Position numbers and translations under genes: made by a program. The notes beneath the pieces are model-generated. The model was given only the letters and a program-made list of their open reading frames with translations. It ran no database searches and was not told where the DNA came from. DNA of 64,000 nt from Nitrosopumilus sp. (GTDB taxonomy: Archaea > Thermoproteota > Nitrososphaeria > Nitrososphaerales > Nitrosopumilaceae), in the NCBI GenBank assembly GCA_965224195.1, contig OZ245040.1:896001-960000 (forward strand). Reading direction: 5' to 3'. Positions 3,078-45,743 of the stretch are shown here, piece by piece; positions within the stretch are counted from its first letter, which is position 1, and every line of letters starts with the position of its first letter.

Positions 3078-4216
3078 CTACCAACATGAGTTCTGAGTAC
3101 CAGTTACCAATCCAGATGTAATACTACATGTTCCTGTGTTGGTTCCTATGAGCAATAGATCTCCACTTATCGAATTTGCAAGACCATCTATCAAAACATT
3201 TTGAGAATCTGTAATCTTAACAGTACTGCCAAATGTGTTGCCCGTAATGGTTATGTTTTGAGAATCAAAAATTTCCATTCCACTATCAATATCACTATTG
3301 GTAATTATCACTGGGTTTGAACTTGTTTCATCATTAACCTTGACAGCTCCATCAATGTCTGCACCGTTGATAGTAATTGAATTACTTCCACTCTCTGTAA
3401 TAACGTCGGATGAAACTCGTGAACCACTTTCCATTACAAGAGTTCCGCCTTGCATTTTGACGCTGCCAGTAACTGTACCGGTTCCTGTAATTAACCATGA
3501 TTGACCACTTGGAATATTCAAATCGCCACTGTGGGTTCCTGAAACAGTACCATCATATGCAGAATTTGTCGTAATACTTACTTGATCAGTATTCTGCAAT
3601 CCAGGAGTGCCATCATCAGTAACCGTTAATTCAAATACGTATGTCTTTGTGCTACCTGGAGTTGGGGAATCAAATGATGAATTTACAGTATCGTCATTGT
3701 TTAGTGTAAGGGTTTCTCCGTCAGCATCAATTATAGCCCAAGAGTATGTTGCAATTGCACTATCATCAGATGAACCTGTACCATCAAGATTCACAGTTAC
3801 TCCTTCTGTAACTGATTGATCAGGACCTGCATCTGCAGTTGGTGCATTATTTACACCTACATCATTTACTGTAATATCTACTGTATCTGCAGTAGATGAA
3901 TCACCATCATCATCAGTAACTATTAGTGAGAATGTCAAGGTTTCAGCATCTGCACCATTAGCTGGTGCAGTAAAGCTTGGGTGTGATGCGGTATTATCAG
4001 GAGATAATGTTACTGTAGTTCCTGCAGTTTGACTCCATGCATATGTGTCAACTGTTCCATCTGAATCACTTGATCCTAAACCAGTAAGATTGACAGCATC
4101 TCCTTCTGTAACTGATTGATCAGGACCTGCGTTTGAAGTTGGTGCATTATTTGCAGGAGGTGCACAGCCTGATAATTCATTACTTCCACTAATTTGATTT
4201 CCAGATACACCAAAGT
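3078..4216 (-). pseudogene. 5'-truncated PKD-domain surface protein
   Basis: Two PKD repeats (NNAPT.AGPDQSVTEG). The frame is open from ~4216 but has no start codon or signal peptide and is cut at the 42-bp repeat. Confidence 0.8.
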
Positions 4217-4258
4217 TTGATATTTAGAATACTGCATGTTCATAACAGATGCAACAGC
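4217..4258. repeat. 42-bp exact repeat, second copy at 30104-30145
   Basis: ttgatatttagaatactgcatgttcataacagatgcaacagc at both sites. Confidence 0.9.
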
Positions 4259-4315
4259 GCATGAAAAGTCAAAGTCCCAGATTATGCTGAAAATCGTAGT
4301 TTTAAGATCGGTTAA

Positions 4316-4423
4316 TTATAAGCGATCTAATACAATAACAAAAAATACTCGCACTGTATCAATGTGGTATAATACTTGCGATTTAAGATCAGATATATCA
4401 AAGATATATCATACTATAATATT
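4316..4423 (+). promoter_or_regulatory. Conserved upstream element shared with ~23006-23114
   Basis: attataagcgatctaata...tataatacttgcgat...agatatatcaaag...atatcatactataatatt-ATG AAACCTCAT occurs at both loci. Confidence 0.65.
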
Positions 4424-6496
4424 ATGAAACCTCATCTCTTGGCAGCAGTAGTATTGTTTTCTGCTGTATTGCTATTCCCTGCCAATGCATTTGCAAATAA
4501 TTATCTGCCAGGAGATGATAATACTGATACGTTTACTGGAAACAACGAGTTTGCAGATGACCATCCAGATTATACAAAGGATGGCAACTGGGAGACAAAT
4601 GAGACCGCCCTCAAAGAAGCTCACTCTGAAATAACAAATCTAATGACAACCCAAAACGATACCCCACTAGAACAGTATACGGGGCCTGACATCCCACTTA
4701 CAATGGTGTACATCGACGATGATACGCTGGTTGTGGGTCTTGACACGATGGCTGCATACTTTGATGTTCCAATAGAGCCAGAATATCTGCAGTTCTTTTT
4801 GGGCATAGATGAGCCAGTTGAGATAAAATATGTAGAGTTTCAGCCAGAGTCACATTCATCCCAAGACAGGATAAAACAATGGCAGGACAGGTACAAAACC
4901 TCCTGTATGCCAGTAAAGGCTGGATACCAAAAGGTATGTGAGATATACAAAAGAACTATGATGCAACTTCATGTGCCAATACCTGCTACTACAACTACTA
5001 CACCTACCACACCTGTAGTTGCACCTCCTACACAAACCACAACACCTTGTGATGACAGCCCAAAAAGCAATACATGCTATTACTACAAGCTGTACCAGGA
5101 CAGATGTACTGAGGGCAAAACGTACAAGCGATGTGGCACGTATGCAACTATGATCAAAAACGCAGGATATGATCTGCCTACTAGTAGCGGAACTGTACCA
5201 ACACCAGTACCAACACCAGTACCAACATACGAACTACAAAATATTAAAACGATAAAGTCTGGTGATTCCATAAGGGTATCCTGGGATGCGCCATCTGACT
5301 TTACCGTAAAATACTACAAGATGTATGTATCTGAGAATGGTGGATATGCTGCATACAAGGGTAAGATAACAAACACTGCCACATCTTACACGCTATCTGG
5401 TGTGCAAGAAGGTAAAGAGTACAAGTTTAAGATAAAAATGTACTATACTAATCAGCAAGGCAGTACAAGCATCAAGTATTTCTACTCTGATGTTGTTAGT
5501 GTACCGGTAACCACACCAACATGTACTGGCTCGCAAATACTGCAAGGTAACGTATGTGTTGATAGATGTCCAGCTAGTAATGAGGAGTGGCGCAACGGCA
5601 TGTGTATTGTGGTGTCATGTCCTATAGGCCAAGTGATACAGAACAATGTTTGTATAACAGTACTAAAGCCAGTTGTGATTACACCACCTATACAACAATG
5701 TAATGTACCCTCTAATGGAACACAGACACAATCTGGTCTAAGCTGTTTATTGGGTATGAGTAGTGGTATATTACGTGGTGGAGAACCAATTCAAATAACA
5801 GGTAATGATGTCGGTTCACCTTCAATATTAAACTTACCTGCTGAAGGTACAGTTGGTATTGTTTTAGAACACAACAACACAAATGTAATGCTCACAAACT
5901 CACATGTAGTACATGCATTTAGAAACGTTGATAGTATATGGTTTTCTGCATTAGAGTTTCCATTTGGAAAAGAAATTGGTGATGTAATTGCAGATTCAAA
6001 TTACCATCTATTAAATACAATGTATACTGATGCAGCACTTGTATCCATTACTGATGATACCATAGTTGCACATGCTAACGAGATAAGATATAATGATGAT
6101 ATTCTCAATGTCACAGATTATGGCAATTACCATGATCTAGATATTGGTCATGAGTTATACATTGCTGGCAGACATAATGATGGTTTTGGTGGACTAGCAT
6201 ATTACAATGCGACTATTGTAATTGCTGTAGAGAATAAACCCAATACACATGTAACCCTTAAAAATATGGGTGTAGGTTCCTATCCTAGTCAAGGTGGAGA
6301 TAGTGGTGCACCTATATTCACTAATAATACTGATGGTACTGCTACCTTTATGGGCATGCATGTAGGACAAGGATGTGCAATAATGTTAGAAAAACAAAAT
6401 GATCGACTAATAGATTTTGGCAACTGTGCTGAACCACCGTTTAAGTTATTTACCCCTTGGGTGAATATTAAAGCAGAGTTTGGACTACAAAACTAA
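4424..6496 (+). CDS. Secreted multidomain protein: FN3, Cys-rich linker, C-terminal chymotrypsin-like (S1) serine protease
   Basis: Signal peptide MKPHLLAAVVLF..AFA, Thr/Pro linkers, FN3 (IRVSWDAPS..YTLSGVQEGKEYKFKI), and triad motifs TNSHV, TDAALV and GGDSGAP. Confidence 0.85.
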   Translation: MKPHLLAAVVLFSAVLLFPANAFANNYLPGDDNTDTFTGNNEFADDHPDYTKDGNWETNETALKEAHSEITNLMTTQNDTPLEQYTGPDIPLTMVYIDDDTLVVGLDTMAAYFDVPIEPEYLQFFLGIDEPVEIKYVEFQPESHSSQDRIKQWQDRYKTSCMPVKAGYQKVCEIYKRTMMQLHVPIPATTTTTPTTPVVAPPTQTTTPCDDSPKSNTCYYYKLYQDRCTEGKTYKRCGTYATMIKNAGYDLPTSSGTVPTPVPTPVPTYELQNIKTIKSGDSIRVSWDAPSDFTVKYYKMYVSENGGYAAYKGKITNTATSYTLSGVQEGKEYKFKIKMYYTNQQGSTSIKYFYSDVVSVPVTTPTCTGSQILQGNVCVDRCPASNEEWRNGMCIVVSCPIGQVIQNNVCITVLKPVVITPPIQQCNVPSNGTQTQSGLSCLLGMSSGILRGGEPIQITGNDVGSPSILNLPAEGTVGIVLEHNNTNVMLTNSHVVHAFRNVDSIWFSALEFPFGKEIGDVIADSNYHLLNTMYTDAALVSITDDTIVAHANEIRYNDDILNVTDYGNYHDLDIGHELYIAGRHNDGFGGLAYYNATIVIAVENKPNTHVTLKNMGVGSYPSQGGDSGAPIFTNNTDGTATFMGMHVGQGCAIMLEKQNDRLIDFGNCAEPPFKLFTPWVNIKAEFGLQN

Positions 6497-9442: not shown

Positions 9443-9575
9443 TTAAGATCTTTGCCTTTTAAGAAACCTTGCAGCAATATCCTCAATTTCTGACATGTCT
9501 ATTCTTTCAGACTTTGGGTGATTCACTGCAATGTACTCATCAACTACAGCCCTGCCATTCTCTGGGAAATAATGA
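9443..9575 (-). pseudogene. C-terminal fragment paralogous to 29924..30247
   Basis: VDEYIAVNHPKSERIDMSEIEDIAARFLKRQRS* versus LDKYIAENHPDSERIEISEIKNISARFLKRCQS*. Confidence 0.7.
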
Positions 9576-9589
9576 GATGTCAAGTCTTT

Positions 9590-10481
9590 TGCTCCTGCAA
9601 AGTTATCCAGAATAGACCTCTAGTTATCCATGTAATTGCAGTTGCTGCAAATATTATTAGAACAATTTTTTCATTTCTATTCCAATTTCCAAGATTTTTT
9701 AATTCTTCAGTGATTATGTTTTTGTCTTGGAGTATTGGTTTTTTGTTATCCAATCTTGCAGAAGTTGTCATGTATATCCATAATGCTAAAAGAGAAACAA
9801 CACTAACTGGAACTCCTACTAACATCCAATCAAAGAAAATTATCTCTACTCCTGCAAGCGAATCACCTAGAGAAGCAAAAGTGCATTAGGTGCAGTGCCA
9901 ATCATAGTTGACAACCCTCCCAGACTAGCAGCATATGCAACACTGAGTATCAAACATGTTGCAAATCTTTTTTTCTGTGCAACATCTGTTTGTGATATTA
10001 CTGCAACTGCAATTGGAAGAATTAACAGAGTAGTTGCAGTATTTGTAATCCAGGTACTCATGTATCCTGTAACAATTATGAATCCCAAAATGATATTTTT
10101 TGGTTTTGTTCCAACAATTTTCAGAGTGTTAAATGCAAATCGCTTGTGAAGATTCACTTTTTCTATTGTCTTTGCAAGTAGAAATCCACCCATTAGCAAA
10201 AATACCAACTTGTCACCATATGCAGAAATTACTTTGTCAATATCTGCCACATTAAACAGTGGAAATACAAACAATGGAATTGATGCAGTAACATAAAATG
10301 GAATTGCCTCAGTGGCCCACCAAATTGCCATCCATACAGATAATCCTAAAACAAGCTTTGCCTCAAAGGCTAATCCATCAATAGGGTATGAGATGATAAT
10401 AGAAAATAGAATTGGAGATAGTACAAACCCTATAATTCGTAGTTTACTGTGTAATGGACTCCAATTATTAAAATTAATCAT
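9590..10481 (-). pseudogene. SLC13/DASS Na+/dicarboxylate-sulfate symporter, N-terminal part
   Basis: WWATEAIP, LHKRFA, TNTATT and TMIGTAPNA motifs; frameshift near 9870 and truncation near 9600. Confidence 0.85.
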
Positions 10482-10507: not shown

Positions 10508-11185
10508 CTATCCCAAAATACATGAATTAGATTCAGAATCAAAAACAGTGCCAGCACCACATTTTGAATCAATTTCATCTGAACCTTGTGTGTTCACACT
10601 ACCAATAACACATGCATTTGTTTCAGGATCAAGCACAGTACCAGCACCACATTTTGAATCAAATTCACCATAGAAAATATCTTCATCTTCAATTACAGAT
10701 GTAGAAATTGTATCTGATGAGGAATCTAGCGCATTATCAAAATACCCTAGAGAATATCCAGATCCAAATAGTATCAAGATTAAAACAGGAACTCCAATAA
10801 TAATTGGAATTTTTAGTGGAATTGATTTTGAGAAACTATTAAATTTTGATTCAGGAATAGGTTGTGGATTTGCACCTATTTCAAAAATAGAAGTTCCACA
10901 AAGCATACAAAAGTTAGCACCTAACGGACCTTTTTTTCCACATTTCCAACAATGAATAGTTTCTTCATTTTCAGGTTCGTTTTCAAAAACAATCTCATCA
11001 GTTTGTGTATCAGTAGTGTGTTTAGCCAAATATTTTTGTCGTAAGTTTTTTAGATAATTTTCATCAGTAATCCAGATTTTTTTATTTTGAATAAATGTCT
11101 GTTTGATATGTTCTAATCGATATGGATCACCAACATCCAATTTCAATAAAGTATTAACTTCATCTACAATATCTGTGGAATCCAT
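10508..11185 (-). CDS. Zinc-ribbon membrane protein with DSKCGAGTV repeats
   Basis: CWKCG..CMLCG, one TM helix and two Cys repeats. Confidence 0.75.
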   Translation of the reverse strand: MDSTDIVDEVNTLLKLDVGDPYRLEHIKQTFIQNKKIWITDENYLKNLRQKYLAKHTTDTQTDEIVFENEPENEETIHCWKCGKKGPLGANFCMLCGTSIFEIGANPQPIPESKFNSFSKSIPLKIPIIIGVPVLILILFGSGYSLGYFDNALDSSSDTISTSVIEDEDIFYGEFDSKCGAGTVLDPETNACVIGSVNTQGSDEIDSKCGAGTVFDSESNSCILG

Positions 11186-11221
11186 ATATTTCCTATTATG
11201 TCACGTGTCATTAAAAACTAA

Positions 11222-11601
11222 TTGGATAAGAAGAATGAATTTCAGACAGATTTGAGGGTAGAAATGTCCAAGATGAATAGACCCAAATCCAGAAATCTTT
11301 TAGTTTATGGAAAACCTGGAACAGGCAAGTAGAAATGTCCAAGATGAATAGACCCAAATCCAGTGTAAAACAATAGTAATTATTAAAATCTAGAAAACAA
11401 ACAAAGCATGTGAACGTTTTCCAGATAAAATTAGAAGTTGAAACATCAAAAGAAATTCTATTACAGACAATTTTAGAAAACAAGGAGAATTTGGATACAA
11501 ATATGATTGCAATTGCGATTAAAGATTATGTTAAAAACCATGAAAAATATGATATTGAGAAAAAAAGACTCTTAGATTTTATTTCAGATGTAAAAAAATA
11601 A
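11222..11601 (+). pseudogene. Degraded hypothetical gene
   Basis: Frame MDKKNEFQTDLRVEMSKMNRPKS is broken by the 71-bp scar and by in-frame stops, then continues as 11410..11601. Confidence 0.5.
11258..11363. repeat. 35-bp direct duplication flanking a 36-bp insert
   Basis: gtagaaatgtccaagatgaatagacccaaatccag at 11258-11292 and 11329-11363. Confidence 0.95.
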
Positions 11602-11756
11602 AAAATTAATTTAGTTTTTAGGTTATTTTTGCCAATAGTTATGTGTGACTAGTATAGTTGACTTTGAATCATGCTGGAATTTTGGAGGATAATATTTCTA
11701 CAGTTTGAATATAATCATCAGAACTAAAAGGTCGCTTTTCATAACATTGTTCACAT

Positions 11757-12215
11757 ACAAGCCAGATTCCATGGGAAGTTTTGGTGTTGATTGGAGGAGG
11801 CTTGGCCTTGGCTAGTGGTTTTACTGCTACAGGCCTTGACATGTGGATAGCAGACAAGTTGTTATTTTTGGGGGAATTGGATTATTTTTTGATTGTACTA
11901 GTAATTGTTACAATTACAATGCTTACAAGTGAATTGATGAGTAACACTGCAGTAGATGCATTACTGTTGCCAATTATGGCAGTTTTAGGAGCAACCACAG
12001 AACTTGATCCAATTTTACTGATGGCTCCAGTTGCATTTGCTACAAGTTATGGATTTATGATGCCCGTTGGAACTCCTCCAAACGCAATTGCCATTGGAAG
12101 CGGATATGTATCAATCAAACAGATGGTTCGTTATGGATTACCATTTGATCTTATTTGCATTCCAATTATCACGGTAATGATAGTATTTTTGGTACCTTTG
12201 GTTTGGGGAAGATGA
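11757..12215 (+). pseudogene. SLC13/DASS symporter, C-terminal part
   Basis: QIPWEVLVLIGGGLALA, SELMSNTA and FMMPVGTPPNAI motifs; no N-terminus. Confidence 0.85.
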
Positions 12216-13635: not shown

Positions 13636-15484
13636 GATTTATTTTGTATTTGTAAACTCCTATTTGTGGGTTTCACTAAACAATTCTCACAAGGGGAATT
13701 GTTTGATTGGTTCAAATTTTTACATATTCAACACTGAGATGGATTAATTATTTCAAAAATAAAACTAAAGATCCCATTACAATCAATATGCTTATGAAAA
13801 TTAACAAATTTCTAATGGGATTCCTAACAACATATCTTTCATCATGTTTTCTTAGGTGAAATCAAAGACTTCGCCCCTTTCAATTCTTTCCTTGAACTTC
13901 TCTTTGGATTTTTCATGGGCTATGTCATTTTCACTTTGTAGGGTTTTTTTTGACATGGATAATAATGACAGTTATTGAATTTATTGTAGCTAGTTGGAAT
14001 TCCTAAAACTTGTAAAGAAATTAACAAAAAAATTGAATACGTGTTCAATATGCTTTCCAATTACTTTTTGTTTTATGTTTGGTAATAGTAGTTATGACTA
14101 GAACAGAAAGAAGACGAAATACTGCCCATCCTACACGGGATGGGAAACACAATCCAGTATGTGTTGATCCTAACTGTGAGGATTGTTAATTTGTAGGTGG
14201 TGGACCAAATGGGATTGAAGCCCTGGCAGTCGTGGGTTTATGATACATTCATCAGACGACTTAATGGTTGTTATAAAGGATGTCCTGTAGTGGTATAAGT
14301 AATAATACCATATGACAAGAATATCACTAAAGCGATGCAAACTTTTTGAGAACCTCAACACTAAGGGACTCCTCATGGTATTTTACCCCGTCTTTGTTTT
14401 CACTCTTTGTAATTATTACCCTGGGGCCGAGATCTTCTATCATCCTAACTATCTTCTTTTGTAGGACCATTACCAGGGAGAGTAGGGTATAATATTGTCA
14501 GTTATGATGTACTGGTGTCTTTACTGTTGCCAGTATGAGTATGGGAGAGGATATTTACAATGAGTGTTGAGGGTTTGTCAAAAAAACATCTTATGCAACT
14601 ACGAGAAGCTGGGACCAACTTTTATCCAACAAATAAGGATGGGAGAAAAGAGGGGATTTACAAAGATAAAGTGGTTGCCATAAAAAGAGAGGAGCAAATA
14701 TTTAGGACACTACAATCAACTGAGGAATTTGAGCATGCAATATCACAGCCGAATTTTTGTGCAGTGTTTACTACTAACTCTCTTGCATTTGTAATTGATG
14801 ATGATACTGAAGAAAATATCAAGGTGGCCAGAGACCACACCATATGCACGTACAGAAAAAAGATTGATCGCACAAGCTTCCACTATTTTGTAATTGCAAA
14901 AACCACGAGGATTTTGAAAAGCTTGCAGTAAAAGACGAGTATATCGAGCACCTTGAGGTGTTTACATATCATAAAATGCGCGTACTTGACGTCCAAGGCC
15001 ATTTTAGGCTTGACAACAACAAATCAGATCCCAAAGCATCATGGTTCCTAAAGGGTGGAGACTACCAAAGACTGCGGATATCCCCTCATTACATATGATA
15101 TGGCAAAGAACATACCAGAGTGGGGGTAAGCCTGATTCGTCTGGGGATGGCAAAAGCGTATCCCTGAAAAAATTTCAAGGAGTAGATATTAACAAGCCAC
15201 CAACACCACACATGACAAATACCAGATTTAACAGCATTGCAATAAAGTGTCTAAGTTATGAAGGCTGGAGTGATGAGAAGACATTAAAACACCTAGAGAT
15301 GCTAAATACAAAAAGAGCATATCCTCATACCAACGATCTAAAACAATATATCACCAATGCAAAAAAATACCTGGAGGATTTTAAAGATGATTTTAAGGAT
15401 GGCATCTACCCCATAACACTTGATAACCTAAATGATATAACAAACCCAAAATACGCAGACAAGCTTGTAACTGTTAGGGGAGTA

Positions 15485-15590
15485 GTATCAAGTAATATGA
15501 TATCATACAGCGTTCCATTTGTAAACAAAGCTGAGCTATTGAAGAAAGGTCTAATGGTATCAAGTAATATGATACCATACAGCGTTCCAT
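15485..15590. repeat. 34-bp duplication (1 mismatch) flanking a 38-bp insert
   Basis: gtatcaagtaatatgata[t/c]catacagcgttccat at 15485-15518 and 15557-15590; period 72. Confidence 0.9.
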
Positions 15591-16526
15591 ACAAACTAAA
15601 AGTCAAATGCATCAATGAAGATGAGGGTCACATAACACATGACAATGAAGAAGACAGAACAAAGATTGTGACAATCAGAAAAAAAAACAATGCCTTTATT
15701 TGTTGATGCCAGTTATAGTGGAAAAAATAAAATATTAGGTCCAATATCGAAGATACCTTTTGATTCTAAATGTACCACTTTCTATAAGGAAAAAGAGCAT
15801 CTAACAATAAACAGGATGAAGATAAGGTCCATAATGCACTCACTAATCATTGATGGTAAAGAATTCCTAGATGATGATGAAAACAAATACTCCTCATATG
15901 ACATTTATGTACTGCAAAAGGATGCTGGCAACAATCTCACTGCTGGAAAAGAGATGGAGGTGAATGGATATGTTATTGCAGATCCCAAAAACGCCAAAAT
16001 CACAATCATGGCAGTACACGTAAGGGAACTAAATGAGAATAACTATAACATAGAAAAGATAAAGGAATTGCAGGTGCTTCACGCAGGCAAGTCACTACAA
16101 GAGATAGTGGACTGGTTTGCATCAGAGTTCACAAAATACACAAAGATAGTGAAACGCAAAGATCTCATATTAGGTGTCATCCTCAACATGTTTAGCTCAC
16201 TAGGTTTTGAGTTTGAGTATAAGATTGTACGTGGCTGGGTAAATATAATAGTAATTGGCGACTCTACTACGGGAAAATCTGAGATAGTGCGACTTGTGAT
16301 AAAACTGGCTAAGTCTGGGCAGATAGTAAGTGGTGAGATGGCAACTATCGCAGGAATTGCGGGTGCATCAATTCAGGCAACTGGTGGTCAATGGTTTACT
16401 GATTATGGACTATTACCATTACAGGACCGCAAGGCCTTATGGATAGATGGTGCACACAAGATACCAAAACATGAGATGGACAAGCTAGCAGAAGCTGAGA
16501 GGAGTGGAAAAATAGAGATAAACAAG

Positions 16527-16638
16527 GCATCAAAGGGCTCTGCATGGGCAAGAACCAGACAGCTGAGAGAGAAAGAATTGCAGCTGCCATTGCAGCTAAC
16601 TAGCATCAAAGGGCTCTGCATGGGCAAGAACCAGACAG
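16527..16638. repeat. 36-bp direct duplication flanking a 40-bp insert
   Basis: gcatcaaagggctctgcatgggcaagaaccagacag at 16527-16562 and 16603-16638. Confidence 0.95.
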
Positions 16639-16672
16639 GGTAAAATTATGAACCCCCTTAATGATGAGGGGC

Positions 16673-16768
16673 GTGACACTACCACCATGAACAACTTTAT
16701 TTGAAATGGTGGGACACAACAACCAACGCTGCGATAGTGTGACACTACCACCATGAACAACTTTATTT
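16673..16768. repeat. 30-bp direct duplication flanking a 36-bp insert
   Basis: gtgacactaccaccatgaacaactttattt at 16673-16702 and 16739-16768; period 66. Confidence 0.95.
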
Positions 16769-17160
16769 ATCCTATACAGGCACTTACAAACTCGTTCCAA
16801 TTACAAACAATTGCCCGCTTTGACTTGGTATTATTTGTGCTAGATGATGAGGCCACAAAGTATATTGTCAGTGAAAACCTAGACAAGCACGGTAAAACTG
16901 ATAATTTTGACTTGTCGTATATGGGTCAATAGTAAATATTAAATGCATATTATTTTATACTTTACTAGTAAAATAATAGGGGGTCAGTAAAATAATAAAG
17001 GTTTAGTAGAATAATTAATTATACATTGCAAGCACGTACTAGTATATCTTGATTTTAACATTGTAGGGACATATATCAAAACTACAAGTTAAAGTCAAAC
17101 TATAAAATTATAAAATATAAAACCATAAACTATAACATTGAGAATCACTAATCAAATATC

Positions 17161-22943: not shown

Positions 22944-23114
22944 CTATACCCATAACTGATGAAGGCTTGTACAAAAAAATAAGCAATTCAATTTAGTATT
23001 GTACATTATAAGCGATCTAATATTATTATAATAAAATACTCATATTATATTAATGTTATATAATACTTGCGATCTGAAGATTAGATATATCAAAGTATAT
23101 CATACTATAATATT

Positions 23115-24172
23115 ATGAAACCTCATCTTTTGGCAGCAACAGTAGTCTTTTCATAATACTGCTTGTACCTGGCGGAGCATTTGCAAACCAGCTGCCAGGA
23201 GATGGCATTTTATCAATACTAAAACAATATGCAAGTGGTGTTCCACTAGATAACATACAGTGCAAAAACCCAGAACATTTTGTAGCGTTGCGTGATAATG
23301 GCAAGCCAATATGCGCCACAGAAAGAACACTTGAGCATCTGGGGCTGGACATGACCTATTACAATCCCAAACCAATTTTAAAAAATACTAAACTAATCAT
23401 TAATCCTACCAACCTTACAGGTATAATCCCACAAGACATTACTTTTGATTATGTTTTAAAAATGCCTCCTGATGATCCTGATGCATTTGCCCAAAGAATG
23501 GCTGAATTTTTTGACGATGAAATTATATCTTCAAGTCATGAAAGAAAAGAGCCAAGCCATCATGGACTGGATAAATACACTACAAAAAGAGGTTGGATTA
23601 AGATTGATAAGGAGTCTCTTTATGGTTTTCCTTTCACATATACTTTCTTTGGACCAGGCAGAATTCCACCTGCACAAGCAGAATCTGTTACAACGTCATT
23701 ACTAGATGAATTGGGAATAAAATTAGATGGAACAGAATATTTTGATAAAGGGGGCATGGCTTCAAATTATGATTATAAATATATGCAAACAATTGGAGAT
23801 TTTATAATCCCAACCAACGTGATAATTACTGATTTTGATCCAGGTTACACTTTTATCCATATTGGAAGTTGGAACTATAATTTATCAGAGATGGATTTTT
23901 TTGACATAAAACAAGCAAAACAAAACGGCAGAGAACATATTCTCAAATATCCAGAACTAACTGGACCTAACTGTGATGTTTTTTTTAGCACTATACCTAC
24001 CGGTATTGAAGATGAAAAGGTTTTGTACATTCTACATGAAAGACCCGTCTATAAGGTGTTTAGTGGCGCATGCAGTATACCATATATGACGGGACATTCT
24101 CAGATGTTTGACACGTTTGTTGATGCAATAACTGGTGAGCCTTTATACGTGCTAAGTAAGTGGATGTTCTAA
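23115..24172 (+). pseudogene. Secreted protein with a 1-nt frameshift in the signal peptide
   Basis: ATG at 23115 (MKPHLLAATVVF). Adding one T in the T-run near 23148 gives IILLVPGGAFANQLPGDG..LKQYASGVPLDNIQC, in frame with 23288..24172. Confidence 0.75.
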
Positions 24173-27060: not shown

Positions 27061-27186
27061 CAGGTTTGATGCCACACATACAACTGATAAACTATCCATT
27101 TTCAATTTAACACCGTATCGCACAATAACTGACAAGGCAACAGGTTTGATGCCACACATACAACTGATAAACTATCCATTTTCAAT
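27061..27186. repeat. 46-bp direct duplication flanking a 34-bp insert
   Basis: caggtttgatgccacacatacaactgataaactatccattttcaat at 27061-27106 and 27141-27186. Confidence 0.95.
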
Positions 27187-29923: not shown

Positions 29924-30247
29924 TCAAGACTGGCATCTTTTCAGAAACCTTGCAGAGATATTTTTTATTTCTGATATCTCTATCCTTTCAGAGTCTGGGT
30001 GATTCTCTGCAATGTACTTATCCAGTGCGTCTTTTGCTGATTCTAAAAAATAACACAACGTCAAATCCCGACAAGTTCCATAGTTATCCATGTAGGCCAG
30101 AGATTGATATTTAGAATACTGCATGTTCATAACAGATGCAACAGCACAGGCAAAATCCTCTCCCTTGATGAGACAAATATCCCAGCAGATACAGTCTCGT
30201 AGATATGTGCCGTATAATTCTAAAACTCTACATCGTATATAGAACAC
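29924..30247 (-). CDS. Hypothetical protein of a locally multicopy family, possibly partial
   Basis: Paralogous fragments at 4217-4290 and 9443-9575. Confidence 0.45.
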   Translation of the reverse strand: MFYIRCRVLELYGTYLRDCICWDICLIKGEDFACAVASVMNMQYSKYQSLAYMDNYGTCRDLTLCYFLESAKDALDKYIAENHPDSERIEISEIKNISARFLKRCQS

Positions 30248-38607: not shown

Positions 38608-41232
38608 TTAGGTAGGAATTTTGAATGACTTTCCATCCAGCTGTGCACGATCTATCCCTTCCTCGTTTGAATAATATTCATTTTTTAGTAACGGAATCCC
38701 GTTATCAAAATTAAGAATATCAGACAACTTTGCAGAGCCATGAGAATTTTTAATGTTTACTGTAAACTTGGAAAGTATACTACTCCAAATCTTGGTATTA
38801 ATTTTCTTATCAATATGTCCTCCTTGAAAGTTCTTAAGAAATTCATTATACATTTTCCAGATCTGCCTACCTGAAACTTTCTCGCAGGATTGACCTTTAT
38901 GTTGAATAAATTTTAATTCAGATTCTGTAAAATTATCTTCATCTTTTGGAACATCAGCATCAATAATTAAAGAGATTGAATCTTGTTTTATGACATCCAC
39001 CTTGTTAAGTTCTTCAAAATCTAAATGTCGTATGCCTTTTTTAACAACACCAAGTGAAGATGCTTTTATCATGTCGTTGTCTCGGGTTTTTATATGCTCC
39101 AATACTTTGTTGTAATAATCATCAAAATTTCTTTTTTCTAGAAAACCTTGCACCAGTTTAGGCGTATTAAAATCGTCTCCAAGGATTGTTTTCCAGCGGT
39201 GAGAGTCTGCATAAATGAAGCTTGCTGCTTGCTTTTGCCCTTCCTTTAAATTGGTAACAATCAGTTTTGCAGTGTTTTTTTGATTATTCGAATTGCGATT
39301 GATTCTACCTGCAATTTGTTCAATAGAATCAAAAATTGCAAAATCCCTAATTCCGAAATCACAGTCTATGTCTACTCCTGCCTCCACACTTTGTGTGGAA
39401 ATTAAAATTACCTTACCACTAGCATTCATTTTTCCTATGATCTCTTTTCGTCTATGTGGCAGAATTGTTGAATTTAGAAGATATGGATAAAAGCCCATAC
39501 TTGATATTTTTTTGTCTTTTTTTATTTTTTTGTACAATTCCAGAGAAGTTTGAATGGTGTTAACAACCAACAGTATCTTGTTCATGTCATCATTGAGTTC
39601 ATCATTTAATACATTCAATAATTGTTCCAGATCATTAACATTCTGTCTGTATTGAATGGATACGCGATTTTTAAATAATGGAAGATCAGAGTATCTGTTA
39701 GAGTTAATCAGATTCAAGGCAAGGTCAGACTCTTTTGTATCAGATAAAGCATCAAGTCTTGGTAGTGTTGCACTCATGATAATAAAGTAAATGTTAAGAT
39801 ATTTGGAACCATACATTATAAGATCGTTGAAGAGTGTCCAATCCTTGTCATTTAGGCTCTGAATTTCATCTATGACCACAATAGAGTTGGCCAAATTAAC
39901 AAGACGGTAATTACTAGTTTTTCCTGATTTTACAAAGGTGTTAAAAAAATTCACATTACTCATAACAACAAATTCATGATTAAGAAACTCATTATCAATT
40001 ACATATTGTAGACGTTCCTCGTCTTTTTCTGATTCAACATTCCAAGCAGATGAGGAATAGATAGATGATAATTCCTTATCCAAACAAAATGTTTTTTTTA
40101 TCACATCGTGGTTTTGCTCAATTATATTGATGAATGGAAATATGTAAAAGACTCTCTTTATGTTATTCTTTGATTTTAGCAAGGTAAGAGCAAGTTTAAG
40201 GGAAATGTTTGTCTTGCCACCACCTGTAGGAATATTTAGATAAAATACCTTTTGCTCTGGGTGGTTTGATATGGCATTCTCAAGTTCGCAGTCAGTTTCT
40301 AAAAGTATTCTTGTCCTTAATTCATTCAAATCATCAATATCAGAAATATTTGAATCAATTGTATTTTTGGAATGTTTGCTAGTGCGTAGATTTTTATTGA
40401 AATCATAATTGTAAAAGTTCTTTTCACATCTTTTAACCAAGTCTGATGTTATCACAGAGATTTTATCAAAGTAAGAAATATTTTGTATAAAATCACTAGT
40501 AGCATAATAATCACTTGTAATCAAAAGGGAGTAAACTGTTTTGTAAAGATAAAACAGGGATTCTTGTTTTTCTTCAGTATCATAAACATTTCGAATATCA
40601 TCTTTATTTTTATTTTTGAAATTATAAGCATCACAAAAATTTTTTACGGGTGGAAGGTCTTGACAGTCAATGAAAAAAGTATGAGAAATTGTGTTTAAAT
40701 CATCTAATTCTTTTTGAATTGTGTTGTAAGAGATTGTATTGGCACACATTTTTTTGTAAAGAAAGTCAATATCTCTTAATGCTGTATGGTGTCTATCTAT
40801 TGTTTGGGACAAAAGAAAAAAAAGAATTTGACATTTTGTGTCATGGAATTTGTCGTAAAAATCCTTAAAAAATAAATGATCAAATAATATTTTACCATAA
40901 AAAGAATGATTAGAATTGAGATTTTCTATATTGATACATAAATCATTTCTCATCTTTTCTTTCTGAAAAATAGGATTAATCTTACCTAGATCATGATAAT
41001 AAATAATAGACCTAATCAACTCAAGAATATCGGATGTTGGGGTGTCAGGTACTAGCTTTGACAAAATACCATTAAAATTTTCTTTTAGTGATAACGTGTC
41101 AATTAAATGATTACAGTATTTCAATGTCTTCTCCGAATGTTCAATTAGTGTTTCCGAATTTTTGTTACTTGAAGTATGTGCAAAAATTTTGTTGCAATAT
41201 TCAGGTTTTAATATCTGGTTGTATGTTTTCAT
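38608..41232 (-). CDS. cas3: CRISPR-associated HD nuclease/helicase Cas3
   Basis: ETLIEHS, YYHDLGK, PTGGGKT, IDEIQ, MSAT and QIAGRINR motifs. Confidence 0.95.
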   Translation of the reverse strand: MKTYNQILKPEYCNKIFAHTSSNKNSETLIEHSEKTLKYCNHLIDTLSLKENFNGILSKLVPDTPTSDILELIRSIIYYHDLGKINPIFQKEKMRNDLCINIENLNSNHSFYGKILFDHLFFKDFYDKFHDTKCQILFFLLSQTIDRHHTALRDIDFLYKKMCANTISYNTIQKELDDLNTISHTFFIDCQDLPPVKNFCDAYNFKNKNKDDIRNVYDTEEKQESLFYLYKTVYSLLITSDYYATSDFIQNISYFDKISVITSDLVKRCEKNFYNYDFNKNLRTSKHSKNTIDSNISDIDDLNELRTRILLETDCELENAISNHPEQKVFYLNIPTGGGKTNISLKLALTLLKSKNNIKRVFYIFPFINIIEQNHDVIKKTFCLDKELSSIYSSSAWNVESEKDEERLQYVIDNEFLNHEFVVMSNVNFFNTFVKSGKTSNYRLVNLANSIVVIDEIQSLNDKDWTLFNDLIMYGSKYLNIYFIIMSATLPRLDALSDTKESDLALNLINSNRYSDLPLFKNRVSIQYRQNVNDLEQLLNVLNDELNDDMNKILLVVNTIQTSLELYKKIKKDKKISSMGFYPYLLNSTILPHRRKEIIGKMNASGKVILISTQSVEAGVDIDCDFGIRDFAIFDSIEQIAGRINRNSNNQKNTAKLIVTNLKEGQKQAASFIYADSHRWKTILGDDFNTPKLVQGFLEKRNFDDYYNKVLEHIKTRDNDMIKASSLGVVKKGIRHLDFEELNKVDVIKQDSISLIIDADVPKDEDNFTESELKFIQHKGQSCEKVSGRQIWKMYNEFLKNFQGGHIDKKINTKIWSSILSKFTVNIKNSHGSAKLSDILNFDNGIPLLKNEYYSNEEGIDRAQLDGKSFKIPT

Positions 41233-41239
41233 TGTTGTA

Positions 41240-42244
41240 TTAGAAGAGGTATATTATATATCCATCTATCTCAAGAAGACTCCCTTTCTCCAAGTCTATT
41301 GAAGACAGGTCACAGCTTTCTGCAAATTGTACAACTTGAAGTTTGTAGTGCATGTCTTGAGAATAACTTGTCGGATAATTTTCAATAAATCTAAATCCAG
41401 TAGGAAGGCCTTCTATTGTACAAGAATCATTGTTTTTTTCAAGAGGATTTGATCTGCTATTTTTTTCATCGCTATTACCAATACTTTTTCTATTTGTGAT
41501 GAATACAGATGATACATGTTCTGTATTTTTTATCTGTCTAACATTATCTATTGTTTGAATGTTATCAAAAGATACAATAAACTCGTTTTTTCCAAGATAT
41601 GGCATAAAAATCGGATTGTTGTCCTCTATCCTTTTTGACAGCTCATCAATTAGCTCTTCTTTGGTGTCGTCATACACGTAAATCCTGTAGGATGGTTTTA
41701 TCAGAAGCTGCTCGTCACAAATTATGTTTTCATACTTGCCGCCACCAAAATAGCTGTTGCGGCTGTTATATCTATTCACTATTTTGTTAAACGGAAAATT
41801 GCCGTTTGGTTTTATTCCAATCTTAAGATGTTTGAGTCTTTTATAATATTCAGGATACTGGATCTCAGATTCTAACTCTTCTATGATTTTATAGTACTCG
41901 TCGCCGTGGTCAAAGTTGCCTTTTTTTATATCTTTTAGGGTGTTTAGTAATTCAAGCAATCTATCACGTGCCTTGAACTTTAATCTTTCAAGTATGATCT
42001 GAATTAAATCGATATCAATTTTATCTTGTTTTTTTGTTGACTTTAACGATTCCAATTGAAGATACTCCAAATTTTCATATTGCTTGTTTATTCCACCCAT
42101 CCCCAATATGCTACCGATTATTCCCAAAATTGCAGGTTTTGGAGGCAGATTGTATGTTAGGCTTATTTTGTTGATATCAGGTTTCTTAAAAAAGCCAAAA
42201 TCCGAACTAATATCAAAGGAGATAAGACTTGTCATCAGAATCAC
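41240..42244 (-). CDS. cas5: Type I-B Cas5 with an internal insertion
   Basis: DFGFFKKPD..LTY..PKPAILGIIGSILG and PYLGKNEF motifs. Confidence 0.88.
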   Translation of the reverse strand: MILMTSLISFDISSDFGFFKKPDINKISLTYNLPPKPAILGIIGSILGMGGINKQYENLEYLQLESLKSTKKQDKIDIDLIQIILERLKFKARDRLLELLNTLKDIKKGNFDHGDEYYKIIEELESEIQYPEYYKRLKHLKIGIKPNGNFPFNKIVNRYNSRNSYFGGGKYENIICDEQLLIKPSYRIYVYDDTKEELIDELSKRIEDNNPIFMPYLGKNEFIVSFDNIQTIDNVRQIKNTEHVSSVFITNRKSIGNSDEKNSRSNPLEKNNDSCTIEGLPTGFRFIENYPTSYSQDMHYKLQVVQFAESCDLSSIDLEKGSLLEIDGYIIYLF

Positions 42245-42255
42245 ACCTAGTTGAT

Positions 42256-43236
42256 TTACTTGTTGTGGATTTCTTCTAAGGTAACAATATGTCTTTTTTT
42301 AACAGGGAACATTTCTATTCCACTTAATTCAGTTTCATTATCATCATAATACAGTTCCACACTTGAAATATATTTTTTATAATTTTTTTCAAATATAATA
42401 AAAAGATCTTCTAAATCTATTTGAGTTTTTCCATTGCTCTTGTTTATTTTGACATGATCTTTCATCATAGGCAGTATATGGGATTCTATTTTTTCATCTT
42501 TTTCATCAGCATTCATTTCAATGAACATGAACAATTCAGAATCAGATCCAATTTTGGAAGCAGATGTAGTATGGCTAACACTACGGCACATTGCTTCTTT
42601 GAACAGTTCTACATCTAATTCTGACAAAAGTGATTCGTTAGTTTTTTTGTCACTATATACTAGCGAATTAATCAAATTATTGGGATTGATCACAAAATCA
42701 TATACATAGTGAGCCTCTAGTGTCTTTGTTTCATTTCCAAGAGTTTGTTGTTTTGCCTCTTTCTTTTTTTCACTTGCCTTTAGATCTGCATATGGAGAAA
42801 GTATTTGATTGTTAAAAAACAGATTTTCATCAAGTTTGTTAATGCCATAAGAAATCTGTGTTGTTCCGGTTAGTGAAACATTAGTTTTTCCAGCATATGT
42901 GGCACCAAATAATCTAACATCAAGTGCAGATGACAATTTGTCAATTGTGTCTGGTTTATTATCAGATGGTTTTGAATTAAAAACCGATTCATAGTTGTCA
43001 TCTATATTGCATGGATTGCCATCTTTTTTGTATCTCCTCCAAACAAACACTTTCTTGCCTTTGTCATGCAAATATTTTCTAACACAATATTTTAGTGCCT
43101 TATCTGTAGCATATATTGTTCCATTGTTATCAGGCAATCTTCGTGGTAATCCGCTAAAATCACTGTTAAAAGAGCTGTTTTGTGTCCTTACAATCAATAG
43201 GCCTTGTGCAAATTTCTTAAAATGTTTGCTTGTCAT
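42256..43236 (-). CDS. cas7: Type I-B Cas7 (Csh2-like)
   Basis: NSDFSGLPR, ATDKALKY.VR, DVRLFG and QQTLG motifs. Confidence 0.9.
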   Translation of the reverse strand: MTSKHFKKFAQGLLIVRTQNSSFNSDFSGLPRRLPDNNGTIYATDKALKYCVRKYLHDKGKKVFVWRRYKKDGNPCNIDDNYESVFNSKPSDNKPDTIDKLSSALDVRLFGATYAGKTNVSLTGTTQISYGINKLDENLFFNNQILSPYADLKASEKKKEAKQQTLGNETKTLEAHYVYDFVINPNNLINSLVYSDKKTNESLLSELDVELFKEAMCRSVSHTTSASKIGSDSELFMFIEMNADEKDEKIESHILPMMKDHVKINKSNGKTQIDLEDLFIIFEKNYKKYISSVELYYDDNETELSGIEMFPVKKRHIVTLEEIHNK

Positions 43237-43261
43237 AGACACATCATTCCTTTTTCTTGTA

Positions 43262-44953
43262 TTAAATAATGTTTTCGTCAAATGCTCCAACATAAAATGG
43301 GATCTTTAATGGTATAAACGAACTGTCAGTTTCGTATGAAAGAACACATGATGCAATCTTTCTAAAACGCATATTGCTAAGATTTATCTCATGTCTATAT
43401 TGCTCTATAAGTTGTTCAATTGTTTTCTTGACTAGTTGTGTAGTAGACTTGTTGGTAAACGGTTCAAGAAGCCCATAGGTTTTGTCTTTTGATTTGGACA
43501 AAGACACCAAGTAGTAAGCTATTTGACCTGTAAAGTATGCCCATGCCTCATGACTAGCAATCTCAAATTTTTCAATCTCATTGGATGTAATCTTTTCTTT
43601 TGCATCTTTGATATGGTCTAAAACACAGTTAGTCTTATCTTTATTCTGCAATAACAAATGTCTGTTAAAAAACAAATTAAAGGTTTCCCTATAGTAGAAT
43701 GTAGTGTTATTTCTTATACTTTTTTCCACCCTAAACAAAATGATGTTTTGCAAATCTCTGTCAGTTAGCGTACGCTGATTTCTATAGACAAAATCAAATA
43801 CCTTTTGTCTTAGAGAATAAGTCAAGGTGGTCTGCTGCTGATCTTTTGCACTTATTATTTTACCAAAATATTGAATGTGGGGTTTATCAGTTAATGCTTT
43901 AGATATCTCTGATTCAATTTGAATACGAGTAACGGAATATGACTGTCTATCCTCATCAAAAAAATCTACATATTCACCAATTTCCCATTTATATCCCGTG
44001 ACATAATCAAAGAAATAATAATCATCGTGGGTAATTACAACAAGATAAAAATCAAATATTTTCTTGTCTTGTTTGAGTTGTTTAAAAATAAAATCAAATT
44101 TATTTTCATCTTTTTCTAGGTTAGATCCTAATAATTTGATTTCTGCATTTAGTTCATCAGGTACAATGAACAAAGGAAAAATTTTGATTTTGTAATGTTT
44201 TAGTATTTTATCAAATTTATCTAATTTTAGTACACAATCCCTGCATGCTCTAAGTGGAATACCTTTACCATTTTTACTAAACTTGGTAACATGTTTTAAA
44301 AAAATTTTCTTTTCATCATAGTTGGTCAAAAAATTAGGATTTGAAATTGTAGTGTTTTTGTTACATACAAAACACTCCCCATCAATGACAAGAGATGCCT
44401 TTCCTTGTGCTGTTTTCTTATTAATAGAATCAGATGCAATTTTTTCCCATTGAACAAATCTTTCTTCACCAGTATGAATCAATACATAAAAATTCAGATA
44501 CTTGAAAGTGTTATCGTTTTTTTCTTTCAAATCATCCGCCGCATCTTTTAGAATTTTGTGAATGTTTTTGATTAGTGTTTCATGTTCATTCTTTGAGAAT
44601 TTTGTTTGGCTTATTTTTTTCAAAAAACAGTTGAGGTTTTTGTCTGAAAGTTTGAAGGCAAAAAAAGAGTATGTTGCTAATCCACTCATACTGCCCAATG
44701 CTTTCTGTAGCATAGACGGCAAAATATAACCATCAAAGTTCTTTATTATTTTTTCATAATACTTGTTTTTATCAATCCATTCTTTGATTTTAGAATCATC
44801 ATCTAATATTTCAAGCTCATCATATTCAAGGAAGTTATTCTTTTCTTTGGTTTTAACTATGATAATTTTTTTTCCTGCATAATCTTTTTCAAATTTTTGT
44901 TCTGGTTTGTTTTTGTCATATGTATCAATAAACACGATTATCTCTTTTAGCAT
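43262..44953 (-). CDS. cas8b: Type I-B large subunit Cas8b
   Basis: Lies between cas6 and cas7; CFVC..CRDC Zn finger; C-terminal Cas11-like AYFTGQIAYYL. Confidence 0.75.
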   Translation of the reverse strand: MLKEIIVFIDTYDKNKPEQKFEKDYAGKKIIIVKTKEKNNFLEYDELEILDDDSKIKEWIDKNKYYEKIIKNFDGYILPSMLQKALGSMSGLATYSFFAFKLSDKNLNCFLKKISQTKFSKNEHETLIKNIHKILKDAADDLKEKNDNTFKYLNFYVLIHTGEERFVQWEKIASDSINKKTAQGKASLVIDGECFVCNKNTTISNPNFLTNYDEKKIFLKHVTKFSKNGKGIPLRACRDCVLKLDKFDKILKHYKIKIFPLFIVPDELNAEIKLLGSNLEKDENKFDFIFKQLKQDKKIFDFYLVVITHDDYYFFDYVTGYKWEIGEYVDFFDEDRQSYSVTRIQIESEISKALTDKPHIQYFGKIISAKDQQQTTLTYSLRQKVFDFVYRNQRTLTDRDLQNIILFRVEKSIRNNTTFYYRETFNLFFNRHLLLQNKDKTNCVLDHIKDAKEKITSNEIEKFEIASHEAWAYFTGQIAYYLVSLSKSKDKTYGLLEPFTNKSTTQLVKKTIEQLIEQYRHEINLSNMRFRKIASCVLSYETDSSFIPLKIPFYVGAFDENII

Positions 44954-44993
44954 CTATCACACAACATTGTAATCAATAATTCTAAATTATATA

Positions 44994-45743
44994 TCATTTT
45001 AAAATTATCTTTTTAATAACAGGATTCACAAAACCAAAACCAAGTGAATTTCGTTCCCCTAATCCACAATCAAGAGCAAACTTTTGAATTTTAGGCGAAA
45101 TACCAGATGAAAACTCTATATTCCATAATGACCCAATAATTGGAATTTTTGACGTTCCCTGCTCAATTTTAGTTGATACCTGTTTTTTGAATTCATATCG
45201 CTCAAAGATTCTTTTTTTAATTTGTAATCCAGTAAACTCGGTATATTTTTTTCGCATATTGGCCTCAAGTGCATCAATGAACAGGTCAACTGGATGATCA
45301 GATCTCCACAGGACTGACTTGTAAGGAGCAGTATTCGTTATTTTCCCATAATATTTTTCAATAGGTATACGCACAATTATCGGAGATTGGGTAACTATTT
45401 TTAATGGAAATACTAAATTTTTTTCAGGTACTTTTGTTACCTTAATTATCTTAAATAAACTTCCAATTGATATTAGTACATGATTGTCAATGATTTTGTT
45501 TAATTGATCATGTATCTGGTTTATGAGTTCTTTATCAGGTGAAGATATAATCAAATGGTAATGCTTATAATTTGTTGATTTGAATATGTTTGAAAAGCAA
45601 AAGAACTTGTATCCTTTTTTATCATGTAGTTGATCAAAGCTGCTATTTCGAAGAAAAGAGTAGATAAATCCTTGGATTTTTCCATGATATTCAAAATTAA
45701 TTTGATAATTTTGTAATGGTTTTATGAAAAGCAGTATACGCAT
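44994..45743 (-). CDS. cas6: CRISPR endoribonuclease Cas6
   Basis: LHDKKGYKFFCFS and GLGERNSLGFG motifs. Confidence 0.95.
   Translation of the reverse strand: MRILLFIKPLQNYQINFEYHGKIQGFIYSFLRNSSFDQLHDKKGYKFFCFSNIFKSTNYKHYHLIISSPDKELINQIHDQLNKIIDNHVLISIGSLFKIIKVTKVPEKNLVFPLKIVTQSPIIVRIPIEKYYGKITNTAPYKSVLWRSDHPVDLFIDALEANMRKKYTEFTGLQIKKRIFERYEFKKQVSTKIEQGTSKIPIIGSLWNIEFSSGISPKIQKFALDCGLGERNSLGFGFVNPVIKKIILK

Follow-up and report, generated by a model that had tools for sequence, protein, structure and literature searches.

We analyzed a 64,000-nucleotide (nt) stretch of the genome of Nitrosopumilus sp. (contig OZ245040.1, positions 896,001 to 960,000; here called the window). At positions 11258-11363 it carries a scar, in which a 36-nt insert matching the Walker A region of a cdc6/orc1 gene sits between two identical 35-nt sequences. 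We conclude, with a probability of roughly 0.8, that this scar arose by off-target spacer integration, that is, by insertion of a spacer by a host Cas1-Cas2 at a site other than a CRISPR array. Coordinates are window positions unless they carry the prefix C1, which marks positions in the host genome.

On this reading, ordinary intergenic DNA would have been attacked at two staggered positions, one on each strand and 35 nt from each other, and a 36-nt prespacer joined there. Gap repair would then have duplicated the 35 nt on either side of the insert, as it does the CRISPR repeat at the leader end of an array. The stagger would be set by the repeat-length ruler of the integrase, either that of the type I-G system (36 nt; Cas4/Cas1 fusion at C1:714 kb) or that of the second, type I-B-like system (37 nt; C1:1455 kb). 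The prespacer itself would have come from a cdc6/orc1 gene of the genus, from its Walker A region; this gene adjoins the replication origin.

A spacer-sized insert between exact 35-nt duplicates

The scar has three parts.

11258-11292, no strand assigned: left copy of the target-site duplication, native intergenic DNA; one of an exact pair, with one diverged copy in relatives
11293-11328, plus strand: spacer-sized insert, a cdc6/orc1 Walker A fragment; 34/36 identical to host cdc6 and 36/36 to cdc6 of the related genome G209
11329-11363, no strand assigned: right copy of the target-site duplication; 0 mismatches against the left copy, the 35-mer contig having about twice the depth of the flanks

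The duplicated sequence, GTAGAAATGTCCAAGATGAATAGACCCAAATCCAG, opens with GTAGAAATG and closes with AATCCAG. It occurs exactly twice in the window, and 100 shuffles of the window gave an expectation of 0 matches for a perfect 35-nt pair. The bases preceding the two copies are G and A and those following them are A and T. Because the match between the copies ends there in both directions, the lengths are exact: 35 nt for the duplication and 36 nt for the insert. The insert, which has the length of a spacer, is unique within the window. Translation of positions 11294-11326 gave NLLVYGKPGTG, and the AA that comes next begins a lysine codon, in agreement with the initial annotation of this DNA, which had read NLLVYGKPGTG(K) from the 36 nt at 11293-11328.

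The site is empty in relatives and occupied in the sequenced population

We searched 41 genomes, the host included, by BLAST with window positions 10900-11700 and found both flanks of the scar in syntenic position in five congeners. Four of these five aligned relatives (G015, G003, G012, and G019) have the conserved flanks and a single short, diverged copy of roughly 25-35 nt, with no insert; the fifth, G017, gave no useful alignment across the scar site. In G015, the closest of the aligned relatives (90% identity in the left flank and 92.5% in cdc6), the empty site reads GTAGAATGGCC...AACACA between the landmarks TTGAGG and TGTGAAAC, the same landmarks as in the host. The duplicated sequence is native intergenic DNA, single-copy in the relatives, and the insert is indeed ectopic, as had been proposed; the core proposal, a spacer lodged away from any array, is well supported.

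The empty site bears on the possibility that the structure is an orphan mini-CRISPR array, with two repeats and a single spacer, that has decayed or was acquired horizontally. The geometry is formally that of repeat-spacer-repeat at CRISPR-like sizes, but the "repeat" is the native sequence just described, present once in relatives. It is also unlike the repeats of the host: its best similarity, 17/35 to the repeat of the type I-G array (repeat A; p ~0.02, uncorrected), lies within the range of controls. We found no hairpin and no ATTGAA-type or other repeat-like handle in the 35-mer, for which no structure was predicted on the plus strand (0 kcal/mol) and a z score of -1.2 was obtained on the minus strand. 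Moreover, the 34 scars of this kind that we found in the genome (see below) each have a different duplicated sequence, and hence 34 different "repeats." We rejected the orphan array, which the empty site contradicts, and consider it very improbable.

Sequencing reads speak against an assembly or sequencing artefact. A 96-nt read-derived contig spans 11263-11358 at flank depth in runs X1 (depth 129, with flanks at 126 and 114) and X2 (depth 425, with flanks at 386 and 411). The 35-nt duplicate assembled as a separate contig at about twice the flank depth in both (258 in X1 and 840 in X2), and neither run yielded a contig bridging an empty site. Run X4 contains 11263-11363 without differences, at low depth. 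The scar is thus fixed in the sequenced population. Nothing was found in favor of an artefact, which we rejected as having a negligible chance of being correct.

Run X2 also yielded a 151-nt contig at a depth of 4.6 that carries a different cdc6 allele, with 3 differences from the insert over window positions 11294-11328. This suggests that a second, rarer relative was present in that sample.

The insert matches cdc6/orc1 next to a probable replication origin

A second occurrence of the insert in the host genome is at C1:195931-195966 on the minus strand, with 34 of 36 positions identical and 2 mismatches. This protospacer sits in a 402-amino-acid open reading frame (ORF) with AAA, Cdc6-lid, and Cdc6 C-terminal winged-helix domains (PF22703, E 8e-25; PF09079, E 1e-19; PF13401; PF00004), which together identify it as Cdc6/Orc1. 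There it encodes ...SNLLVYGKPGTGKT... The proposal that the insert is a Cdc6/Orc1 Walker A fragment was therefore upheld by a near-exact match to cdc6 itself.

It had also been pointed out that cdc6 genes often adjoin replication origins, and the surroundings of host cdc6 agree with this. Upstream of the gene, at C1:196285-196472, are three elements resembling origin recognition boxes (ORBs), ACCCCATTATTTCCACTC, two direct and one inverted. They lie about 300-500 nt from the protospacer in a stretch with a G+C (GC) content of 27-29%. ORB repeats in AT-rich DNA next to cdc6 are the usual layout of an archaeal origin, and these features together mark a probable replication origin. The ORF adjoining cdc6 is, we presume, a putative DNA polymerase D small subunit.

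The initial annotation had raised the possibility of a recombination product, in which the flanks of the donor would be homologous to the duplicated sequence. Identity between the protospacer flanks and the 35-mer was at chance level. The two are unrelated, and the scar is therefore not a recombination product.

Thirty-four solitary scars of similar geometry occur in the genome

A scan of the 2.06-Mb chromosome returned 332 candidate repeat pairs. Of these, 34 were solitary scars, and the others belonged to the three CRISPR arrays or were tandem repeats. Duplication lengths were 36-38 nt in 20 scars and 34-39 nt in 26, with a mode of 37 nt; five duplications were 28-31 nt long and three were 43-49 nt long. 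Inserts measured 34-38 nt in 26/34 scars, and the mode of the scar period was 73 nt. The duplicates were perfect in 30 scars and differed by one mismatch in the other 4. An independent scan for solitary exact repeats at spacings of 30-400 nt gave 94 pairs, 32 of them in the 70-79 nt bin. Most of the remaining pairs had spacings that were multiples of 3 (120, 150, 153, 321, and so on), as is typical of tandem protein repeats.

Besides the scar at 11258-11363, the window holds five further two-copy repeats with spacer-sized inserts.

2236-2343, no strand assigned: 36-nt duplication and 36-nt insert; insert 35/36 identical to host gins51
15485-15590, no strand assigned: 34-nt duplication (1 mismatch) and 38-nt insert; insert identical to both inverted hsdS copies
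16527-16638, no strand assigned: 36-nt duplication and 40-nt insert; no donor found
16673-16768, no strand assigned: 30-nt duplication and 36-nt insert; duplication length fits the type I-B repeat
27061-27186, no strand assigned: 46-nt duplication and 34-nt insert; no donor found

A second empty site is provided by the scar at C1:1639458, which lies in a multi-copy element: in alignments across the site, host paralogues of the element and its copies in G007 have the duplicated sequence only once. The element itself (C1:1639058-1639965) has 24 matches in the host and 35 in G009. When one copy and the insert were removed, the open frame was lengthened by 37-117 codons in at least 7 scars; 12 of the 34 add a multiple of 3.

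We considered whether these scars could have arisen by a non-Cas mechanism, for instance through slippage during replication with templated insertion, or through a different integrase or a transposase. Duplication lengths do vary, from 28 to 49 nt, and neither a target motif nor a protospacer-adjacent motif (PAM) links the scars to a particular Cas1. However, the sharp size peak coincides with the repeat-plus-spacer periods of CRISPR arrays, 72-74 nt, and the inserts without a match in the host have the GC content of CRISPR spacers (see below). The same geometry recurs in two other genomes with type I-G systems, G009 and G311. To our knowledge, no transposon produces duplications of about 36 nt around a 36-nt cargo, and we found no fourth Cas1-like gene (casposase) in the host. 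We therefore regard a non-Cas origin as improbable.

Casposons are multi-kilobase elements with terminal inverted repeats and target-site duplications of about 14-15 bp. They resemble the scar in Cas1-type staggered integration and target-site duplication. Unlike them, the scar holds a 36-nt cargo without coding capacity, and all three host Cas1 genes lie in CRISPR-cas loci, none being of the casposase type. A casposon or transposon footprint was rejected on these grounds.

Geometry points to the type I-G integrase for the main class of scars

The host has three CRISPR-cas loci.

Locus A, type I-G, C1:707-723 kb: Cas4g/Cas1g fusion (715 bits), Cas3g, Csb2, Csb1, and Cas2; 36-nt repeat, 90 repeats, mean spacer 37.0 nt
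Locus B, type I-B, in the window: Cas6, Cas7, Cas5, Cas3, Cas4, Cas1b, and Cas2; 30-nt repeat, 69 repeats, mean spacer 36.3 nt
Locus C, type I-B-like, C1:1450-1467 kb: Cas7/Csh2, Cas5, Cas3, Cas1, Cas2, and Cas4; 37-nt repeat, 132 repeats, mean spacer 36.0 nt

Within the window, locus B is laid out as follows.

38608-45743, minus strand: type I-B effector genes cas3, cas5, cas7, an unassigned 563-amino-acid ORF, and cas6 (NCBIfam)
45990-50529, minus strand: array B, 69 repeats of 30 nt and 68 spacers of 32-39 nt
50680-52417, plus strand: type I-B adaptation genes cas4, cas1b, and cas2 (NCBIfam)

The three cas1 and three cas2 genes have uninterrupted frames, and each module includes cas4 or a cas4-cas1 fusion. 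The modal spacer lengths are 36-37 nt in A, 36 nt in B, and 35-36 nt in C. The modal scar period of 73 nt equals one repeat plus one spacer of A and of C, and the repeat of array B agrees with the five scars whose duplications are near 30 nt. The 35-nt duplication at 11258-11363 is 1-2 nt shorter than repeats A (36 nt) and C (37 nt); it is at odds with the 30 nt of repeat B.

For comparison, we sampled 200 kb around the cas1 genes in each of the congeners G009 and G311. Scars of 37 + 36 nt and 36 + 38 nt (duplication plus insert) were present in the G009 sample, and scars of the same two geometries in that of G311; a comparable 200-kb stretch of the host contains 9 scars. The only Cas1 hits in G009 and G311 were frames of type I-G length (~570 amino acids) and type I-B length (~330 amino acids), and the I-G arrays of both genomes have 36-nt repeats. 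Both G311 scars (C1:643692 and C1:649261 in that genome) lie within 6 kb of the I-G cas1 gene, one of them ~150 nt beyond the end of the array. Because the same scar geometry accompanies 36-nt I-G repeats in both samples, the sequence evidence points to the I-G integrase as the maker of the main class of scars, with locus C also possible.

The scars are unevenly distributed. Eight lie within 41 kb (scan statistic, p ~1.5e-4) and 14 within 241 kb, located between loci A and B (p ~7.5e-4), and the median distance from a scar to the nearest cas1 gene is 90 kb, compared with ~201 kb for random placement (p ~0.002). These p-values, like those for the Fisher comparison and donor clustering given below, are rough, and the choice of regions was post hoc. 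The part of the window that contains three of the scars, 15200-17000, had no match at E <= 1e-10 in 40 relatives and appears to be strain-specific accessory DNA. Part of the clustered region thus lacks a counterpart. The cluster may be explained equally well by a tolerance of accessory DNA for insertions as by nearness to cas1.

Array B contains an internal duplication, in which spacers 24-25 are the same as spacers 28-29; the duplicated block is 170 nt long, with 99% identity between 47513-47682 and 47780-47949.

Scar inserts match the host genome, whereas array spacers do not

Seven of the 34 scar inserts match the host genome, whereas none of the 288 array spacers has a match there outside the arrays (Fisher p 8e-8). 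The seven self-like inserts matched over 33-38 nt with 0-2 mismatches. Their donors are cdc6, gins51, a DUF7482 gene, two inverted hsdS copies, two PD-(D/E)XK paralogues, large repeat-protein genes, and a 137-amino-acid ORF. Three of these donors, cdc6, gins51, and the DUF7482 gene, lie within 39 kb beside the predicted origin (p ~0.035, post hoc). Such a contrast would be expected if self spacers were lethal only when expressed from a real array and harmless where no CRISPR RNA (crRNA) is made.

The GC content was 0.437 for the non-self inserts and 0.355 for the self-like ones, compared with 0.40-0.42 for array spacers and 0.335 for random genomic 36-mers. The second contig of the assembly, C2 (7434 nt; GC 0.312), was matched by no array spacer and no scar insert.

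The insert at 15519-15556 is a 38-nt stretch identical in both hsdS genes. These genes, which encode type I restriction-modification specificity subunits, are inverted relative to each other and lie ~7 kb apart, at C1:1092853-1094184 and C1:1100748-1102013. The pair may form a phase-variable system.

The cdc6 fragment more likely came from a diverged allele than from the present host copy

Both mismatches between the insert and host cdc6 are at synonymous third positions, with ACA GGC in the insert and ACT GGT in the host. We looked for the 36-mer in 201 family genomes, the host included. With up to 3 mismatches it was present in six, but the exact sequence occurred only in G209, a congener less close to the host, inside a syntenic cdc6 orthologue; G209 is 81% identical to the host over 3 kb and 82.8% identical within the cdc6 gene. 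Exact 36-mer scans of viral, genome, and metagenome contig collections gave no match, G209 evidently being outside the scanned set. By contrast, ACT GGT is common to the host, its closest relatives G015, G017, and G201, and G021. The insertion is recent, since the scar is absent from G015 and the two 35-nt copies are still identical, and parsimony indicates that host cdc6 already read ACT GGT when the insertion occurred. To judge from these alleles, a diverged allele is a more likely donor than the present host copy. It could have belonged to a different lineage of the genus, or to the host itself before being replaced. The earlier description of the spacer as self-derived is accordingly doubtful. 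A point against this account of the donor is that a stretch of 36 nt is too short to single out a donor lineage, and only the sampled genomes were searched for exact matches.

A competing account, which we take seriously without favoring it, keeps the same off-target integration but draws the spacer from the host's own cdc6, the two differences having arisen later by substitution or allele replacement. Within the genome, no sequence matches the insert better than host cdc6 does (34/36). The donors of the gins51 and DUF7482 inserts are 12 and 39 kb away from cdc6, which places 3 of the 7 self-like donors within the 39-kb region noted above. In both of these inserts the single mismatch keeps the base found in relatives, and they fit capture from the host lineage because it is the host copy that carries the derived base. 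Three inserts show no difference from the host wherever they match it (35/35, 38/38, and, in an insert of 45 nt, 35 nt). The polarity in cdc6 is the opposite: with ACT GGT shared by G015, G017, G201, and G021, the host copy has, by parsimony, not changed since the split of the host from G015, and the scar postdates that split because the G015 site is empty. In addition, the 36 nt show two changes against none across the 70 nt of the duplicates, both of them synonymous and together reproducing an allele found in G209.

No PAM or target motif is evident, and the scar is unlikely to be expressed as crRNA

The cdc6 protospacer is flanked by ATC on the 5' side and AAC on the 3' side (GTT on the other strand), in both the host and G209. 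The cdc6 scar had been put forward as the best single test case for donor site and PAM, and a type I-B PAM had been expected at the donor. It served the first purpose, with the match to cdc6, but not the second: no PAM was recognizable in the flanks, and the 35-nt duplication fits the systems with 36- and 37-nt repeats instead. The searches described below revealed no PAM for any of the three host systems, and none can be read from the cdc6 case. Nor did the seven self-like protospacers have a motif in common. Megablast searches with arrays A, B, and C and with window positions 2200-27199, a segment that covers six scars, matched none of 50,697 phage records. A BLAST search of array C against 81 genomes of the genus revealed no protospacer among its six best hits, which on realignment were all CRISPR repeats. 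The end bases of array spacers and scar inserts are similar (G rare in first position and C rare in last) and are not diagnostic.

At the target sites, there is a weak preference for G or C at the first duplicated base (24/34 at the left boundary and 20/34 at the right). A target motif resembling repeat A was rejected, the 17/35 match of the 35-mer being without support across the scar class.

Several observations weigh against integration by Cas1-Cas2 as we propose it. We infer the agency of these proteins from sequence. The duplication is 35 nt long rather than 36 or 37, and lengths of 28 to 49 nt occur across the class. The locus near which the scars cluster, at 24-65 kb, is the type I-B locus, the one whose 30-nt ruler does not fit them. 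Judging by the perfect duplicates of 30 of the 34, the scars are all young, which calls for a recent burst or for fast loss. The 34 target sites are no more similar to repeats A, B, and C than are random genomic controls. Pyrococcus furiosus Cas1-Cas2 is described, in passages of PMC6698737, as carrying out full-site integration at non-CRISPR DNA in vitro; this establishes that an archaeal Cas1-Cas2 is capable of such events, but the off-target sites in those passages share features of the repeat, unlike the 34 sites here. Finally, TTN was found at positions -3 to -1 in 0/7 self-like protospacers on either strand, although all three host systems encode Cas4. For the type I-U/I-G Cas4/Cas1-Cas2 of Geobacter sulfurreducens, passages of PMC6547450 give a predominant spacer length of 36 bp and an upstream TTN PAM in 50-80% of spacers. 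The combination of a Cas4-Cas1 fusion and a 36-nt insert is shared with that system; the ATC and GTT flanks of the cdc6 protospacer are not.

The scar does not qualify as a functional array, which would have a leader and repeats of a recognizable family with a Cas6 or Csb2 processing signal: the 35-mer has no significant similarity to repeats A, B, or C and no predicted plus-strand hairpin. Since its duplicates resemble no CRISPR repeat and it sits between two divergently oriented genes, the scar plausibly yields no crRNA and would be neutral. Like a self-targeting spacer of the kind found in arrays and associated with autoimmunity, the insert matches a chromosomal gene of the host or of close kin (34/36 in host cdc6). 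In contrast to such spacers, it lies outside any array, has no processable repeats, and differs from the host gene by 2 mismatches.

Neighboring genes

The initial annotation had referred to a gene surrounding the insert. There is none: the site is intergenic, between two divergently oriented genes.

10508-11185, minus strand: gene for a 225-amino-acid zinc-ribbon protein (PF13240, E 3e-6), conserved in relatives; ORF
11410-11601, plus strand: 63-amino-acid ORF, starting 47 nt to the right of the scar

The start codon of the zinc-ribbon gene is 73 nt to the left of the scar. No Pfam family matched the 63-amino-acid ORF. Alignment of relatives revealed conserved AT-rich blocks on both sides of the scar, each nearer its own gene; the block on the right, AATAGTAATTATTAAAATCTAGAAAAC, occupies ~11373-11400 and is probably the promoter of the 63-amino-acid ORF. 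If the two blocks are the promoters, as we presume, the scar would be upstream of both transcription units.

Farther out, the ORFs at 9580-10481 (minus strand) and 11781-12215 (plus strand) resemble, by eye, the N- and C-terminal parts of a permease of the divalent-anion/sodium symporter type. These halves lie on opposite strands and have the scar locus between them, so that either an inversion or a pair of gene remnants is suggested. Elsewhere in the window, segments of 41-86 nt at 4200-4461 and 9456-9541 recur at 23033-23152 and 29937-30157, ~18.7-25.9 kb away, with 83-91% identity, which hints at duplicated gene neighborhoods.

Discussion

Nivala, Shipman and Church (Nat Microbiol 3:310) reportedly observed in 2018 that the type I-E system of Escherichia coli integrates spacers off target, giving "neo-CRISPR" loci, when Cas1-Cas2 is overproduced. 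The cdc6 scar resembles those loci in that the insert has the size of a spacer, lies outside any CRISPR site, and has on both sides a duplicated sequence roughly as long as a repeat. It differs from them in that the case is natural and archaeal and arose without engineered overexpression. The ruler is also different, being ~35-38 nt, as for I-G or I-B-like repeats, rather than the length of the E. coli repeat. Furthermore, one genome here holds dozens of fixed events, with a fifth of the inserts self-like.

Off-target integration by Cas1-Cas2 is thus a known kind of event, with circumstantial evidence from two other species, as stated in passages that cite Nivala (10.1101/148544, PMC7054753, and PMC6698737); by the account of those passages, prior natural evidence has been circumstantial only. 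Among the papers listed by our literature searches, none described natural mass off-target integration in this archaeal group. The host genome provides an unusually rich natural record of this kind of event, and the set of scars is of more interest than any single scar.

We suggest tentatively, recognizing that the proposal taken as a whole may well be wrong, that the 34 scars are an unselected natural record of capture by archaeal type I Cas1-Cas2. Self spacers would be purged from arrays while off-target copies survive; capture would proceed with no evident PAM and with a hot spot beside the origin; the cdc6 case would represent DNA of another lineage; and, since ORFs are interrupted by at least 7 scars, Cas1-Cas2 would act as a mutagen of measurable effect.

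What the genome offers is a natural, archaeal, multi-event data set with an internal control, namely the 288 array spacers, none of them self, set against 34 scar inserts, a fifth of them self. This contrast makes three questions accessible in an archaeon that grows slowly, with no need for genetics: how costly adaptation is to fitness, given that some scars interrupt ORFs; which DNA naive adaptation samples ahead of selection; and the repeat-length ruler of type I-G integrases. Among the scars, that derived from cdc6 is the clearest single case, with documentation of donor, empty site, and fixation. Given its two synonymous mismatches, one may ask whether DNA of related lineages enters these cells. 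If the cross-lineage capture of cdc6 is true, it would be evidence that DNA passes between lineages of these archaea.

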